Positions 2,640-18,791 of a DNA stretch of 64,000 nt are shown piece by piece; position 1 is the first letter of the stretch, and the number at the start of each line of letters is the position of its first letter. Location: NCBI RefSeq assembly GCF_044704955.1, contig NC_091992.1, forward strand, positions 130,882,001-130,946,000, written 5' to 3'. The stretch is from Pristiophorus japonicus. Taxonomy: Eukaryota. Both the position numbers and the translations under genes were made by a program. The notes beneath the pieces were generated by a model. That model saw only the letters and a program-made list of their open reading frames with translations, made no database searches and had not been told where the DNA came from.

Positions 2640-5553
2640 GCCACACTACATCATAATTCTAAAAGGACAAAGGGTGTTAAAAAAAACAAGCCTGTCTTAA
2701 TGCAAGGAGTATCTGTAATAAGGTGGATGAATTAACTGTGCAAATAGATGTTAACAGATATGATGTGATTCGGATTACAGAGACGTGGCTCCAGGATGAT
2801 CAGGGCTGGGAACTCAACATCCAAGGGTATTCAACATTCAGGAAGGATATAATAAAAGGAAAAGGAGGTGGGGTAGCATTGCTGGTTAAAGAGGAGATTA
2901 ATGCAATAGTTAGGAAGGACATTAGCTTGGGTGATGTGGAATCTATATGGGTATAGCTGCAGAACACCAAAGGGCAAAAAACATTAGTGGGAGTTGTGTA
3001 CAGACCTCCAGACAGCAGTAGTGATGTTGGGGAGGGCATCAAACAGGAAATTAGGGGTGCATGCAATAAAGGTGCAGCAGTTATCATGGGTGACTTTAAT
3101 ATGCATATAGATTGGGCTAACCAAACTGGAAGCAATACGGTGGAGGAGGATTTCTTGGAGTGCATAAGGGATGGTTTTCTAGACCAATATGTCGAGGAAC
3201 CAAATAGGGGGGAGGCCATCTTAGACTGGGTGTTGTGTAATGAAAGAGGATTAATTAACAATCTCGTTGTGCGAGGCCCCTTGGGGAAGAGTGACCATAA
3301 TTTGGTGGAATTCTACATTAGGATGGAGAATGAAACAGTTAATTCAGAGACCATGGTCCAGAACTTAAAGAAGGCTATCTTTGAAGGTATGAGGCGTGAA
3401 TTGGCTAGGATAGACTGGCGAATGGTACTTAAGGGGTTGACAGTGGATGGGCAATGGCAGACATTTAGAGACTGCATGGATGAACTACAACAATTGTACA
3501 TTCCTGTCTGGCGTAAAAATAAAAAAGGGAAGGTGGCTCAACCGTGGCTATCAAGGGAAATCAGGGATAGTATTAAAGCCAAGGAAGTGGCATACAAATT
3601 GGCCAGAAATAGCAGCGAATCCGGGAACTGCGAGAAATTTAGAACTCAGCAGAGGAGGACAAAGCGTTTGATTAGGGCAGGGAAAATAGAGTACGAGAGG
3701 AAGCTTGCAGGGAACATTAAGACGGACTGCAAAAGTTTCTATAGATATGTAAAGAGAAAAAGGTTAGTAAAGACAAACATAGGTCCCCTGCAGTCAGAAT
3801 CAGGGGAAGTCATAACGGGGAACAAAGAAATGGCAGACCAATTGAACAAGTATTTTGGTTCGGTATTCACTAAGGAGGACACAAACAACCTTCCGAATAT
3901 AAAAGGGGTCAGAGGGTCTAATAAGAAGGAGGAACTGAGGGAAATCCTTATTAGTCGGGAAATTGTGTTGGGGAAATTGATGGGATTGAAGGCCGATAAA
4001 TCACAAGGGCGTGATGGTCTGCATCCCAGAGTACTTAAGGAGGTGGCCTTGGAAATAGAGGATGCATTGACAGTCATTTTCCAACATTCCATAGACCCTG
4101 GATTAGTTCCTATGGAGTGGAGGGTAGCCAATGTTACAGGGAATTATAGACCGGTCAGCCTGACATCGGTAGTGGGTAAAATGATGGAATCAATTATAAA
4201 GGATGTCATAGCAGCGCATTTGGAAAGAGGTGGCACGATAGGTCCAAGTCAGCATGGATTTGTGAAAGGGAAATAATGCTTGACAAATCTTCCAGAATTT
4301 TTTGAGGATGTTTCCAGTAGAGTGGACAAGGGAGAACCAGTTGATGTGGTGTATTTGGACTTTCAGAAGGCTTTCGACAAGGTCCCACACAAGAGATTAA
4401 TGTGCAAAGTTAAAGCACATGGGATTGGGGGTAGTGTGCTGACATGGATTGAGAACTGATTGGCAGATAAGAAGCAAAAAGTAGGAGTAAATGGGTACTT
4501 TTCAGAATGGCAGGCAGTGACTAGTGGGGTACCGCAAGGTTCTGTGCTGGGGCCTCAGCTGTTTACATTGTACATTAATGATTTAAACGAGGGGATTAAA
4601 TGTAGTATCTCCAAATTTGCAAATGACACTAAGTTGGGTGGCAGTGTGAGCTCTGAGGAGGATGCTATGAGGCTGCAGAGTGACTTGGATAGGTTAGGTG
4701 AGTGGGCAAATGCATGGCAGATGAAGTATAATGTGGATAAATGTGAGGTTATGCACTTTGGTGGTAAAAACAGAGAGACAAACGATTATCCGAATGGTGC
4801 CAGATTAGGAAAAGGGGAGGTGCAACGAGACCTGGGTGTCATGGTACATCAGTCATTGAAGGTTGGCATGCAGGTACAGCAGGCGGTTAAGAAAGCAAAT
4901 GGCATGTTGGCCTTTATAGCGAGGGGATTTGAGTACAGGGGCAGGGAGGTGTTACTACAGTTGCACAGGGCCTTGGTGAGGCCACACCTGGAGTATTGTG
5001 TACAGTTTTGGTCTCCTAACTTGAGGAAGGACATTCTTGCTATTGAGGGAGTGCAGCGAAGGTTCACCAGACTGATTCCCGGGATGGCGGGACTGACATA
5101 TCAAGAAAGACTGGATCAACTGGGCTTGTATTCACTGGAGTTCAGAAGAATGAGAGGGGATCTCATAGAAACGTTTAAAATACTGACGGGTTTAGACAGG
5201 TTAGATGCAGGAAGAATGTTCCCAATGTTGGGGAAGTCCAGAACCAGGGGTGACAGTCTAAGGATAAGGGGTAAGCCATTTAGGACCGAGATGAGGAGAA
5301 ACTTCTTCACCCAGAGAGTGGTGAACCTGTGGAATTCTCTACCACAGAAAGTTGTTGAGGCCAATTCACTAAATATATTCAAAAAGGAGTTAGATGAGGT
5401 CCTTACTACTCGGGGGATCAAGGGGTATGGCGAGAAAGCAGGAATGGGGTACTGAAGTTTCATGTTCAGCCATGAACTCATTGAATGGTGGTGCAGGCTA
5501 GAGGGGCCGAATGGCCTATTCCTGCACCTATTTTCTATGTTTCTATGTTTCTA
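2640..5553 (+). mobile_element. CR1-clade LINE, nearly complete ORF2 (APE endonuclease + RT), inactivated
   Basis: ORFs 2723-2956, 2987-4276 and 4460-5455 carry [48 protein letters not shown] and LEYCVQFWSP. In-frame stops and a small deletion (PLFKKGGREK missing) inactivate it. It ends with the 3' hairpin and (TTTCTATG)n tail. Confidence 0.95.
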
Positions 5554-6782
5554 TGTCCGCGGTGATCCCTTCCACTCTCGGCCCTGAGTGTCCGCGGTAA
5601 ACCCACCCTCGGCCCTGAGTGTCCGCGGTAAACCCACCCTCGGCCCTGAGTGTCCGCGGTAAACCCACTCTCGGCCCTGACTGCCCGCGGTAAACCCACC
5701 CTCGACCCTGAGTGTCCGCGGTAAACCCACTCTCGGCCCTGAGTGTCCGCGGTAAACCCACTCTCGGCCCTGACTGTCCGCGGTAAACCCACTCTCGGCC
5801 CTGAGTGTCCGCGGTTAACCAACTCTCGGCCCTGAGTGTCCGCGGTAAACCCACTCTCGGCCCTGAGTGTCCGCGGTAAACCCATTCTCGGCCCTGAGTG
5901 TCCGCGGTAAACCCACTCTCGGCCCTGACTGTCCGCGGTAAACCCACTCTCGGCCCTGAGTGTCCGCGGTTAACCAACTCTCGGCCCTGAGTGTCCGCGG
6001 TAAACCCACTCTCGGCCCTGAGTGTCCGCGGTAAACCCATTCTCGGCCCTGAGTGTCCGCGGTAAACCCACTCTCGGCCCTGAGTGTCCGCGGTAAACCC
6101 ACTCTCGGCCCTGAGTGTCCGCGGTAAACCCACTCTCGGCCCTGAGTGTCCGCGGTAAACCCACTCTCGGCCCTGAGTGTCCGCGGTAAACCCACTCTCG
6201 GCCCTGAGTGTCCGCGGTAAACCCACTCTCGGCCCTGAGTGTCCGCGGTAAACCCACTCTCGGCCCTGACTGTCCGCGGTAAACCCACCCTCGGCCCTGA
6301 GTGTCCGCGGTAAACCCACCCTCGGCCCTGAGTGTCCGCGGTAAACCCACTCTCGGCCCTGAGTGTCCGCGGTAAACCCACTCTCGGCCCTGACTGTCCG
6401 CGGTAAACCCACCCTCGGCCCTGAGTGTCCGCGGTAAACCCACCCTCGGCCCTGAGTGTCCACGGTAAACCCACTCTCGGCCCTGACTGTCCGCGGTAAA
6501 CCCACTCTCGGCCCTGAGTGTCCGTGGTAAACCCACTCTCGGCCCTGAGTGTCCGCGGTAAACCCACCCTCAGCCCTGAGTGTCCGCGGTCCCTGAGTGT
6601 CCGCGGTAAACCCACCCTCGGCCCTGAGTGTCCGCGGTAAACCCACTCTCGGCCCTGACTGTCCACGGTAAACCCACCCTCGGCCCTGAGTGTCCGCGGT
6701 AAACCCACTCTCGGCCCTGAGTGTCCGCGGTAAACCCACTCTCGGCCCTGAGTGTCCGCGGTAAACCCACTCTTGGTCCTGA
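5554..6782. repeat. 31-bp CpG-rich minisatellite, ~40 copies
   Basis: Unit GTCCGCGGTAAACCCACTCTCGGCCCTGAGT. It begins directly at the CR1 tail. Confidence 0.97.
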
Positions 6783-7133
6783 CGGGAACCATGGACGGGG
6801 CATTGCAAGCCAGATCCTCTAACTATTCCTTCCCCGCCCCTTCTCGGCCTCTGCACGCTCAACACCCAGGACTTCGAGGATAGGCAAGGCAACTGTAATG
6901 TAATTGCTCCTTGGGTTCTTTGCTTAAGAATTCAAAGCAACACATTGCTATTAAGAACTAGTTGGTTTATTAGCAAAGGTTTAACAATCACACTACACAT
7001 TACCGGTTCATCCACCAGGATCACAACCACCTGCCTCATCGTGGACACCCTGAACCCAACTGGCTGGGGTTTTATTGAGTATTGTGAACATCACGTGACT
7101 GGCTAAGCCACTCCCAATTCAACACCTCTACAA

Positions 7134-8216
7134 CTATTTTAATTGAGCATTAATACAAGTGCCCCCTTATTAAAGAGGCACTAAACTAACAAATAAACAA
7201 ATTAAACTTTTGGCGTTAAATAAATCAAATTTAAATTTGGTTGCCGGGGGTGATGATGCACTCAGTCCCTCCGGTGCCCACCTCTCACGGAAAGCCGCCA
7301 GCGGACCGGTGGACACTGCGTGCTCCATCTCCAGGGACACCCTGGCTCAGATGTAACCATGGAAGAGAGGCAGGCAGTTGGGCTGAATGACCCCCTCGAC
7401 CGCCCGCTGCCTGGATCGGCTGATGGCCCCCTTGCCCATGCCCAGGAGCAGTCTTATGAGGAAGCCTTCCAACCTGCCCACTCCACTCCGCACAGGGTGC
7501 CCAAAGATCAGGAATGTGGTACTGAAGTGCAACCAGAATTTCAGGAATAGCCCCTTCAAATAATGGAAGAGGGGCTGCAACCTCACACATTGAACATACA
7601 CATGGAACACGGACTCCTCTAGACTGCAGAAATTACAGGCGGCCCGAGAGCCCGTGAACTGACTTAAAAACGTATTGCACGGGACTGCCCCTTGCACCAC
7701 CCTCCAGGCCAAGTCCCCAATAAATACAGGGAGGACTCCCGCGTAGAGAGCACTCCATTGGGGACCCCCGCCTCCTCTGGACGGCAAGATGGTGCACCAT
7801 GGCGTGTCCAGATGGCAGTCGAGGATGGCAACGTGGAGAGTGTGCAGGAGCAGCCCGTACAGGAATCCCCTTCACGCAGAACTGAAAAGCACGGAGGGGA
7901 TTTCCCCGAGGAGGCTCAAGTTGTGAGGTGCCGGCTCCCGAGGGAGGTTTCGGGGCTTGGCGCCGATGAGGAATTCCATCCGGACGGGGGTCAGTTCGGA
8001 TGGGATTGCCCCATGTGCTTGAGCCTCCTCGCTGCACCGAACGGAGTCGGGGCCAGTGCCGTTTTTAGCGACTCGATGGCAATGGCCGCGCGCCGGATGT
8101 CGGCCCGGGATAGGCACCATGCCAGCATGTCCGGCGCCATCCAGCCCGCTCCTCCACCATCGAGCAGGTCCCTGACCCTGGTCACCTTGCCAAACACAGC
8201 TCTCTCATCCGCCTGT
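7134..8216 (-). mobile_element. Tx1/L1-clade non-LTR retrotransposon, 5'-truncated copy A
   Basis: Encodes the zf-RVT-type C-terminal region (GDLAWRVVQGAVPCN...CNFCSLEESVFHVYVQC). It is flanked by the 15-bp repeat TCAACA(C/G)CTCTACAA at 7119-7133 and 8217-8231. Confidence 0.85.
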
Positions 8217-8231
8217 TCAACAGCTCTACAA

Positions 8232-9414
8232 CTATTTTAAGTTGTGATCAGTAATCAAGTGCCCCCTGATTAAAGGGGGTGGGACACTCCAAAAACTTTT
8301 CAAGTGCCACCTTGTTTTTTTTTGTTTTTATTGTGTTTTTTTTTGAAGGCACTAAAACCACAACTTATACAAGTGTCCCCTGGCTAAAAGGGTGGGGGCA
8401 CTAAAAGCGGACAATAAACAAATTAAACTTTAGACAAAAAAACATCAAATTAAAATTTGGTTGCCGGGTGTGATGATGCACTCCAGTCCTTCCGGCGCCC
8501 ACCTCGCGCGGAAGGCCACGAGCGTACCGGTGGACACCGCGTGCTCCATCTCCAGGGACACCCTGGTTCAGATGTAAGCGCGGAAGAGAGGCGGGCAGTC
8601 GGGCTGAACGACCCCCTCGACCGCCCGCTGCCTGGACCGGCTGATGGCACCCTTGGCCGTGCCCAGGAGCAGCCCTACGAGGAGGCTCTCGGACCTGCCC
8701 GCTCCCCTCCGCACAGGGTGCCCAAAGATTAGGAGTGTGGGACTGAAGTGCAGCCAGAAATTGAGGAGCAACCCCTTTAAATAATAAATCAGGGGCTGCA
8801 ACCTCGCACACTCAATAAAAACATGGAACACGGACTCCTCCAGACCGCAGAAATTGCAGGCGGCCTGGGAGCCCGTGAACCGGCTTAAAAATTTATTGCA
8901 CGGGACTGCTCCGTGCACCACCCTCCAGGCCAAGTCCCCGATAAACAGTGGGAGGACTCCCACGTAGAGTGCACTCCATCGGGGACCCCCGCCTCCTCCG
9001 GACGGCAAGATGGTATGCCATGGCGTGTCCAGATGGCAGACGAAGATGGCAAAGTGGAGAGTGTGCAGGAGCAGCCCGTACAGGAAACCCCTCTGCGCAG
9101 AACTGAAAGGCACGGAGGGGATTTCCCCGAGGCGGCTCAAGTTGTGAGGCGCCGGCTCCCGAGGGAGGTTTCGGGGTTTGGCGCCGATGAGGAATTCCGT
9201 CCGGACGGGGGTCAGTTCGGACGGGATCTCCCCACGTGCTTGAGCCTCCTCGACGCACCTAACGGAGTCAGGGCCCAGCGCCGTTTTAAACGACTCGATG
9301 GTATTGGCCACGCGCCATGCCAGTATGTCCGGCGCCATCCAGCCCACTCCTCCACCATCGAGCAGGTCCCTGACCCTGGTCACCTTGCCAAACACAGCCC
9401 TCTCGTCTGCCTGC
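8232..9414 (-). mobile_element. Tx1/L1-clade non-LTR retrotransposon, 5'-truncated copy B
   Basis: ORF 8568-9395 (275 aa) contains WRVVHGAVPCN...CNFCGLEESVFHVFIEC. It is flanked by TCAACAGCTCTACAA at 8217-8231 and 9415-9429. Confidence 0.85.
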
Positions 9415-10702
9415 TCAACAGCTCTACAAACCCGTGAGCATGTTCACAGGTGCATACCTTACAGCTTGGGACCCGACAGTAAGGATCATCAAGCTTTTCC
9501 ATCACAGGGGCATCACATTCAATCCACCCCCTCCCCCCATTGATCACTTCAGCTGATCTGTTCATTGATAAAACAGTGCCCATCGGTGGGCTGAAATGAA
9601 ATAGAAAGAGTTTGCCCCTGAAATTGAGATAGTGACCCTGCTGGATCTGGATTGCTGTCTAACTGTCCAATGAACGCCACAGGAAAGTGCTCAGCCATCC
9701 AAATGGGGCAGGTTGTCAATGTAGCAAGTATCGGTTGGTTGCAGTGTTGATGTTCCCCCACTGAAAGCAGCACAGCTCAATCAGGTCACACTTACACCGG
9801 ATCGAGGCATAGACTTTCATTGCTGCACACACATCAATGCTGGTATTTAATTCATGGGAACTCCAGAAAAAGTGGTCTTTTCTCACCCAACATGCATTTC
9901 CCAGTATTGCAGCAATCTGAAGTCTGGCCCCGGCCCACTTTGCCCTCAGCAGTCTGGCTGCACTGCGCTGCGGTCAATGTTCATACGCCCTGGCTGGGAT
10001 CAGCACAGTCTCGGGATCCAACCCTGGGGCCTCGTTGGCCTGGCTCGGCTCGGCTCGGCTCGGCTGGGCTCACCACCCCACCCCACCATCTGGTGCATCC
10101 TGCTCACTCCTGGCTCGCCTCCCACCTCTCTGTAGTGTGTGTGTGACTATCTCGCTCAAATACACTTGCTATGAAACCACTCATTTTTACAACATTGCTG
10201 TCATTCTTTATTTCTGGTTGGGTCGCTGTTCGCAGCTGCACACATTCTAATCTGTTGACCCTCTGCCTCTCAGCGAGGACCCCGAAATAAATGGGCTCCA
10301 GGTGCCATCTGCTGGTGTTGTTCCGTATGACATGAAAAGCTTCCAATGGGATGCCTAGTTTGGCTCTCCATTCGATGGCCTCCCGCGATGCCGAGTGGGG
10401 ATATGAAGTGCCTCCTGCAACGGATCTCAGTGGGCAGGTCAATGTGATGTGTCCCATGGTCTGGGACTCATGGCTCTGTCCACAGAGGATTCACCCACTG
10501 ACTTACACCATTATAGTCAATGACAGCAGATCCTGCACAATATCACATTGCAGGCACTGCAAGCGCCCAGTACAACCAGCAGACAGCCTGCAGTTTTACT
10601 GGTCACCCAGTTCCCATTTGTTTCAATAACAGTATTTATGAAAACTCCTAGATCTGCAGGGAGAAATACAAGAAACAGACCTGGGGCTCATCCACGAGCT
10701 AG

Positions 10703-17931: not shown

Positions 17932-18206
17932 TGTAATGTATGCACCGGTGAGGATGCTCATAGGTTTGTAGAGCTGCTGCATTGTGAGTGGCTTAGCCAG
18001 TCACGTGATGTTCACAAGACTCAATAAAATCCCCAGTCTGTTGGGTCTAGGTCATCCACAACCAGGTATGCAGTTGTAAGCCTAGTGGATGAACTGATAA
18101 TGTGTAGTGTGATAGTTAAACCTTTGCTAATAAACCAACCAGTTCTTAACAGCAACGTGTTGCTATGAATTCTTAAGCAAAGAACCCACGAAGCAAATAC
18201 ATTACA
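17932..18206 (+). mobile_element. Intact solo LTR (275 bp)
   Basis: Termini TGTAATGTA...TACATTACA form a 9-bp inverted repeat. It has internal AATAAA motifs and a 5-bp TSD CCGAT/CCAAT with one CpG-type mismatch. Confidence 0.8.
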
Positions 18207-18533: not shown

Positions 18534-18791
18534 TCAGCAGTGCGAGGAGGACATCGGGTCGTAATCTGGGCACTTGAGGAGCGCCGGATAGTTGGCGCTC
18601 ATCTGCAGGGAGGCGTCGCTGGAGATGTCGGAGGGGCTCCGCCCGCGGGGCCAGCCGTCCGGGTGCAGGAACTGGCCCGAGTAGTCGGAGCTGTTGCTCA
18701 GCCTCGGTCTGTAGAAGCTGGGGTGGGGTCTGTAAATCTCCTCGGCAGTGTATCTCTTCATGAAGAGGTAGACTGACATTACTCCGGCACT
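18534..18791 (-). CDS. CACNG5: CACNG5 coding exon 5 (TM4 end and cytoplasmic tail)
   Basis: Acceptor ttcttgcag|AGT. Encodes SAGVMSVYLFMKRYTAEEIYRPHPSFYRPRLSNSSDYSGQFLHPDGW...CPDYDPMSSSHC-TGA (258 nt). Confidence 0.95.
   Translation of the reverse strand, partial: SAGVMSVYLFMKRYTAEEIYRPHPSFYRPRLSNSSDYSGQFLHPDGWPRGRSPSDISSDASLQMSANYPALLKCPDYDPMSSSHC

Follow-up and report, generated by a model that had tools for sequence, protein, structure and literature searches.

A Tx1-type LINE of the shark Pristiophorus japonicus targets a fixed site in a Gypsy-type LTR, and newcomers in its stacks probably copy the 5′ end of the resident

Members of the Tx1 clade of long interspersed nuclear elements (LINEs) are known to reside in other transposons. 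The relevant section of PMC4494074 gives Tx1L in Tx1D and Tx1-Mar in a Mariner as examples and also reports a preference for long terminal repeat (LTR) retrotransposons for the crocodilian Tx1-8_Crp and Tx1-4_AMi (Tx1-Mar group). Likewise, stacking of copies by repeated insertion is already treated in parts of two earlier papers (PMC2718515; PMC5932611). Here, we describe a Tx1-type LINE family of the shark Pristiophorus japonicus on the basis of a stretch of 64,000 nucleotides of contig NC_091992.1, referred to as the window, in which two tandem LINE copies, A and B, interrupt an LTR of a putative Gypsy-type retrotransposon. The best explanation as a whole, to which we assign a probability of roughly 0.8, is that A and B are two insertions at a fixed site of this LTR and that the second carries the front end of the resident copy.

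Tx1L of Xenopus laevis resembles the shark element in having a fixed insertion site inside another transposon, as described in the corresponding passages of PMC4494074 and PMC1950540. Its target, however, is the DNA transposon Tx1D, whereas the shark element uses a Gypsy-type LTR and, later, CR1 LINEs, and the passages on Tx1L contain neither stacking nor shared starts. The crocodilian elements can be likened to the shark family by description only, their section in PMC4494074 giving no site, duplication length or stacking. R1 arrays in Drosophila 28S ribosomal DNA (rDNA) show a 14-bp duplication and newcomers that enter the duplicate at the 5′ end of the resident, as is the case here. They differ in belonging to the R1 clade and in their rDNA target, and an inherited internal truncation point is absent from the relevant parts of PMC2718515. 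The double-insertion tandems of D. melanogaster, as presented in part of PMC5932611, are also separated by a target duplication and arise from repeat insertion. There, distinct 5′ truncations serve as a sign of independent insertion, whereas in the shark independent subfamilies share one truncation. Among titles and the beginnings of abstracts, a literature that leaves aside Repbase and most subscription journals, we recognised no report that treats the inheritance of truncation points, a Tx1 element directed at CR1 or the shark family, and no description of shark Tx1 targets or Tx1 target switches. The truncation shared across subfamilies, the probably copied front end and the CACCTG motif common to the CR1 sites of the youngest descendants go beyond the initial annotation of the window.

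The initial annotation had described a target-copy A-target-copy B-target arrangement, and this layout is real (Table 1). The 15-mer is found unchanged at 8217-8231 and 9415-9429, and 7119-7133 deviates from it at one base; elsewhere in the window, its core motif is found on the minus strand at 17966 only. Compared with the uninterrupted LTR at 17932-18206, the parts of the interrupted one align with 86.3% identity over 241 nt (6894-7133) and 85.4% over 48 nt (9416-9463). Three target copies are thus present as annotated, but the assumed 15-bp duplication is better read as 14 bp plus one ambiguous base, since the terminal T of the element equals the next base of the LTR. Hosts at the CR1 sites described below have an A at this position, and the joints there show that the T is the last base of the element, so that the duplication comprises 14 bp. 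The designation of the interrupted copy as a solo LTR is not supported, because its flanks (GCAAC / GCTTG) lack a 5-bp duplication. The empty LTR is flanked by CCGAT / CCAAT, which match at 4/5 positions.

Of 1069 aligned bases, 949 are identical between copies A (7134-8216) and B (8232-9414). The two are further distinguished by a 24-nt indel and by the length of the 3′ untranslated region (UTR), about 105 and 227 nt, respectively, so the reported divergence is genuine. Both encode the C-terminal part of a LINE open reading frame 2 (ORF2) on the minus strand. Towards the end of ORF2, a stop lies in one and the same CpG codon of both, and each has a match to the Pfam domain zf-RVT that lies below cut-off (E 2.4e-5 and 1.3e-4). 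A feature absent from the initial annotation is that A and B are 5′-truncated at one identical base. As a shared truncation base ordinarily suggests tandem duplication, it has to be explained before two insertions can be accepted.

Genome-wide, the exact joint between the LINE 3′ end and the target occurs 10,025 times, with 0 in the control. When the 3′ flanks were tabulated, as the initial annotation had proposed, with a query free of target sequence, the target adjoined 28 of the 30 best matches. For a position-ordered sample, exact matches to a 22-mer of the 3′ UTR, 2,397 in total, were followed along contig 1 up to the thirtieth. The target stood beside 22 of these 30 ends, corresponding to 18 of 26 loci, and LTR sequence was seen beside 16 of these 18; the on-target fraction refers to the two samples of 30. 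The remaining 8 position-ordered ends were off-target, although 6 of them begin TGTA. Both samples lie above the rule of Kojima (2015), by which a LINE is target-specific if one target type makes up >20% of its flanks. Looked at from the host repeat, 19 of the first 30 of 3,729 LTR-left sites were filled. Of the 38 complete loci, 30 have a duplication of 14-16 bases when the ambiguous T is counted. The 73 LTR-left joints are spread over 62 positions, and coinciding positions have different joint sequences, full-length copies apart; exact full-length 5′ joints number 71.

Because truncation points differ between loci, the copies do not go back to one amplified insertion. Two outcomes that would speak against targeting had been named beforehand, unrelated flanks and a single ancestral insertion amplified with the LTR. 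Both were examined and neither appeared, as most copies adjoin the LTR site and their truncations differ. We therefore regard sequence-specific targeting of the Gypsy-type LTR by a Tx1-type LINE as practically certain: one transposon fills most copies of another's LTR. The proposal of an LTR-specialised family holds as far as targeting is concerned, but the family is no permanent specialist, given the 8 of 30 off-target ends and the youngest members at CR1 sites. Insertion would proceed by target-primed reverse transcription with the apurinic/apyrimidinic (AP)-type endonuclease and the reverse transcriptase (RT) of the element, as the biochemistry of Tx1L and R1 suggests. Its product, seen at thousands of loci, is a 3′ end joined to the same LTR base; the target is duplicated over 14 bp, and the truncations are independent of one another. 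Two other candidates were rejected. A fixed-length non-autonomous derivative starting at the A/B base is ruled out by starts that vary by locus, and an internal element sequence resembling the LTR by the occurrence of the motif in front of units that begin at many ORF2 positions. Three loci (L124, L200 and L202) have one shared off-target flank without the hexamer discussed below, in a repeated region near a contig end and on small contigs; it could be a further target or a duplicated block.

Identical truncation is common in the stacks. Neighbouring copies have the same start in 46 of 102 pairs, A/B included, compared with 85 of 3000 random pairs (48 pairs were scored by script, and those in L095 and L279, with starts 13 nt apart, were dropped by eye). 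At least one shared-start pair is contained in 32 of 56 arrays. Where both ends were seen, the end types differ in 25 of 35 shared-start pairs. Sites with a rare allele in the downstream copy show that allele in the upstream copy as well in 41 of 68 cases up to 15 nt, a stretch made up partly of duplication bases, in 38 of 141 between 15 and 120 nt, in 17 of 152 between 120 and 250 nt and in 13 of 399 beyond 250 nt; other-locus controls share about 3-4%. With CpG sites excluded, sharing amounts to 34/116 near the joint versus 10/327 distally (p 8e-14; 19 of 37 informative pairs). In the A/B pair, 4 of 10 rare alleles are shared up to 190 nt and 1 of 35 further on.

A duplication predicts even sharing. 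The gradient observed instead indicates that the upstream copy is a chimera with the front of the resident. It is thus probable that the upstream newcomer copies the 5′ end of the resident. As the simplest route, in nearly half of the re-insertions the new cDNA may pair with the homologous resident behind the nick, or synthesis may jump onto it. The newcomer would then consist of the first ~50-150 bases of the resident, including its truncation point, and its own 3′ part, which is the pattern present in the arrays. A branched intermediate preceding second-strand cleavage has been shown for R2 (in part of PMC6895275). A shared truncation point alone is no proof of tandem duplication, and the chimeric joints in the stacks record the 5′-joining step of LINE insertion, which is, like target change, an open question.

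Stacks reach nine units and very probably grow upstream, at the 5′-side duplicate. Where a copy ending in ...GAGT is paired with one ending in ...TAGT, the former is the upstream member 17 times and the downstream member twice (p 7e-4); where long-UTR and short-UTR copies are paired, the long-UTR copy is upstream 16 times and downstream once (p 3e-4). Rare-allele load (medians: G 0.019, long T 0.025, short T 0.033) and terminal branch lengths (0.032, 0.051 and 0.060, respectively) both rank G as youngest, long T as intermediate and short T as oldest. Taken together, subfamily order and age ranking indicate growth at the upstream duplicate. Copy A belongs to the short-T and copy B to the long-T subfamily, and the two are not sisters in the tree; hence A was probably inserted first and B second. 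The suggested re-insertion into a regenerated target is borne out in that A and B, which differ in subfamily by 3′ UTR type and tree, are two separate insertions, the second of which likely entered the upstream target duplicate.

The nature of the LINE became clear from intact sister copies that were reached through an RT search of the 5.9-Gb genome and have open frames of 703 and 1306 residues. In one of them, L205, the endonuclease (PF03372) and the RT (PF00078) score above cut-off and zf-RVT (PF13966) and the ORF1 zinc knuckle (PF00098) below. The architecture is that of the Tx1 clade, with two ORFs, a weak zinc knuckle in ORF1 and an AP-type endonuclease, an RT and a C-terminal zinc motif in ORF2. 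The best named full-length relative is Tx1L (ORF2 sequence YTX2_XENLA, P0006), with 49% identity over 100% of the 1299-aa ORF2 of the sister copy. The ORF2 C-terminus of copy B is 85% identical to that of intact L205 and 39% to Tx1L. In agreement with the initial assignment, for which a full-length element and a Tx1 tree had been suggested as a check, the intact sister ORF2 groups with Tx1L at an SH-like approximate likelihood ratio (SH-aLRT) of 99 in a quick tree of 22 rows chosen from 120 listed hits, with no L1/CR1 outgroup.

The host repeat has a 275-bp LTR unit with about 6,500 search candidates in the genome and TG...CA ends; the 5-bp flanks match at 4 or 5 of 5 positions in 17 of the 30 best-matching LTRs. 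A motif resembling a primer-binding site (PBS) follows the LTR end (175 LTR-end/TGGYG joints, control 0) and runs into shared internal sequence, and a purine run precedes 3′ LTRs. Between two LTRs, locus L148 encodes RVT_1, RT_RNaseH_2 and rve in Gypsy order; its gag-like frame had no Pfam match. By domain order only, the host repeat is classified as a Gypsy-type LTR retrotransposon. A small DNA transposon with 10-bp inverted ends was considered and is ruled out by the PBS-like motif and the internal pol. The LINE lies in the sense direction of the LTR, 35 bases from its start. Two LTR variants, represented in L035-L060 and in the filled loci, differ just after the target, and both are filled. 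An unrelated, abundant Gypsy family and CR1 copies are frequent within or next to LINE copies (L149, L092, L094, L120 and L122).

The youngest copies, with a terminal branch of 0.003, sit antisense in the RT region of a CR1-type LINE, where 15,987 exact joints were counted. An intermediate-age group uses a second CR1-like site with the same CACCTG spacing (5′ joints of L256, L204 and L201). A tree of 70 copies forms a ladder from short-T LTR copies to CR1 copies. Moreover, the first bases of CR1-targeting copies resemble the LTR target, with agreement at 11 of 11 bases in L256, which is in line with descent from LTR-inserted copies; full-length R1 transcripts carrying upstream target sequence have been described in a part of PMC2718515. 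We conclude that the lineage quite probably switched from LTR to CR1 targets, even though support for the inner branches of the subfamily tree is poor and the tree is rooted at its midpoint. The age series would reflect a later move to two CR1 sites with the same hexamer, the LTR-target relic being retained at the 5′ end. The endonucleases of LTR- and CR1-targeting copies differ at about 8 of 245 positions. A clear change in an endonuclease loop behind the switch was not found, as V occupies the hairpin tip in copies at CR1 sites and also in several that target the LTR, with R or K in six others. Old LTR copies and young intact CR1 copies, with about eight differences in the endonuclease and a common upstream motif, are thus available in one lineage, together with thousands of stacks.

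The young sister subfamily with intact frames (L203, L205-L207, L212, L213, L218 and G000:C1:9710121-9765228) forms head-to-tail full-length arrays at one antisense CR1 site, with nine joints on contig 1, most of them about 7.2 kb apart. At the other extreme of length, L290, L294, L297, L299 and L303 are 3′-end insertions of 12-33 bases with full duplication at the CR1 site. Three identical very short CR1-site insertions near the start of contig 1 are probably contained in a duplicated block.

In the LTR and at both CR1 sites, CACCTG ends 18 bases before the cut. At this spacing, the 8 off-target sites have CANNTG in 3 cases, a one-base-shifted or partial match in 2 and no such motif in 3. The intact hexamer is present in 40 of 72 filled versus 7 of 26 empty LTRs (p 0.021), and in the window the filled LTR has CACCTG and the empty one CACCGG. 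Based on this correlation, we lean towards a functional role of CACCTG in targeting. Doubts arise from the position-ordered subset, which alone is not significant (11/19 filled versus 2/11 empty, p 0.057), from the 32 of 72 filled LTRs that lack the intact hexamer and from the 3 of 8 off-target sites without such a motif. In the 3′ UTR of the element itself, a similar motif lies 23-25 or 33-36 bases from the end, not 18. Site choice may use CACCTG 18 bases upstream together with bases at the cut. After insertion, the upstream duplicate alone would then keep the whole signal, and stacks would consequently grow toward the 5′ side. As a tentative and rather speculative extension, the element might have a two-part address, in which an anchor of six fixed bases, located 18 bases upstream and recognised either by a host E-box factor or away from the active site of the endonuclease, is combined with a flexible cut site, the 5′ end being routinely finished by copying a homologous neighbour in cis. 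If true, such an address would allow a single lineage to change from the LTR to two CR1 sites while its endonuclease stays nearly the same, and copying in cis would represent homology-directed 5′ joining with a dated record in thousands of stacks.

Alternatively, the site might be chosen by a host protein that binds the E-box-like hexamer and tethers the element, or through flanking target sequence on the element RNA, and not by ORF2 reading DNA. In favor of this, only about 8 endonuclease positions separate LTR- from CR1-targeting copies despite very different bases at the cut, off-target sites have CANNTG variants, CR1-targeting copies keep their LTR-target-like 5′ end and the R1 transcripts with upstream target sequence provide a precedent (part of PMC2718515). 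However, purified Tx1L endonuclease is sequence-specific on its own according to the pertinent passages of PMC1950540, and in L148 a target variant at position 5 was carried into the 3′ duplicate, which argues against RNA templating there. We consider this alternative unlikely, albeit a serious one; it is compatible with two insertions at a fixed site and does not exclude them.

Copying of the resident front by the newcomer has to be weighed against a different sequence of events, in which targeting is real but recombination between the target duplications first doubles the resident at its locus and the 3′ part of the upstream copy is then overwritten by a younger cDNA or by gene conversion. 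This produces the same chimera, and L156 and L161 show that block duplications occur in arrays. Yet it requires two rare events for 46 of 102 pairs. In addition, young CR1-site stacks, which are 1-3% diverged and have different 3′ UTRs, already exhibit the pattern: of 8 arrays that contain truncated units, 6 have shared starts. Unmodified duplicates would be expected to be common, whereas sharing beyond 250 nt equals background. Duplication followed by overwriting therefore seems quite improbable.

Several observations nevertheless weigh against copying by the newcomer or against strictly upstream growth. Duplication plus later 3′ overwriting yields an identical product, and in array L156 a block of two units is simply repeated, so that tandem duplication occurs too. 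No shared start is present in 56 of 102 neighbouring pairs, and the value of 46/102 may be slightly high as some arrays were extended after shared starts had been noticed in them. Young CR1-site stacks first differ 28-80 nt past the joint and are too alike for a copied tract of any length to be visible. When age is tested within pairs, the result is weak (upstream copy lower in 18 and higher in 13 of 33; p 0.02), and the order is broken by two T-above-G pairs and one short-above-long pair.

That A and B represent an old, decayed tandem duplication of one insertion is very improbable. The identical truncation base, the CpG codon with a stop in both copies and an identity of 89%, which falls within the family range, would fit such an origin. 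It is contradicted by subfamily assignment, as the short 3′ UTR of A and the long one of B mark separate subfamilies and that of A is found at other loci, by the tree, in which they are not sisters, and by the distal rare alleles, of which 1 of 35 is shared beyond 190 nt. Finally, carriage of one ancestral insertion by the LTR element, for which the site, judged by its position, would be suited because this LTR part would be copied from the 3′ LTR to both ends, is ruled out by differing truncations (62 positions among 73 joints), by the use of the site by several LINE subfamilies of different age and by the state of PBS-bearing elements: both LTR starts were visible in 2 of 20, and each of these two has only one LTR filled (L148; L134 with L149).

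Table 1. Features of the interrupted and the uninterrupted LTR in the window
Feature	Position	Strand	Basis
Gypsy-type LTR, first 35 bases (flank upstream of target)	9429..9463	-	85% to LTR 1-48 of 17932-18206
CACCTG, candidate upstream targeting signal, ends 18 bases upstream of cut	9447..9452	-	motif and spacing as at both CR1 sites
14-bp target-site duplication, upstream copy	9415..9428	-	15-mer match
Tx1-type copy B, 5′-truncated, long 3′ UTR subfamily, probably the later insertion	8231..9414	-	terminal branch 0.028
Target-site duplication, middle copy	8217..8230	-	15-mer match
Tx1-type copy A, truncated at the base of B, short 3′ UTR subfamily, probably the earlier insertion	7133..8216	-	terminal branch 0.057
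Target-site duplication, downstream copy, one mismatch	7119..7132	-	15-mer match
Rest of LTR (about positions 50-275)	6894..7118	-	86% to 17932-18206
Uninterrupted LTR of the same family; empty site 17967-17980; upstream hexamer 17943-17948 = CACCGG	17932..18206	+	LTR alignment

The repeats of the window resemble those of cartilaginous fishes, and the surroundings of the two LTRs contain further features. A 31-bp minisatellite of some 38 copies occupies about 5540-6780 of the window and ends about 110 bases before the interrupted LTR. An open frame on the minus strand at 18534-18790, presumably CACNG5-like, has the appearance of a terminal coding exon belonging to a host gene, and the empty LTR is located about 330 bases past its stop.

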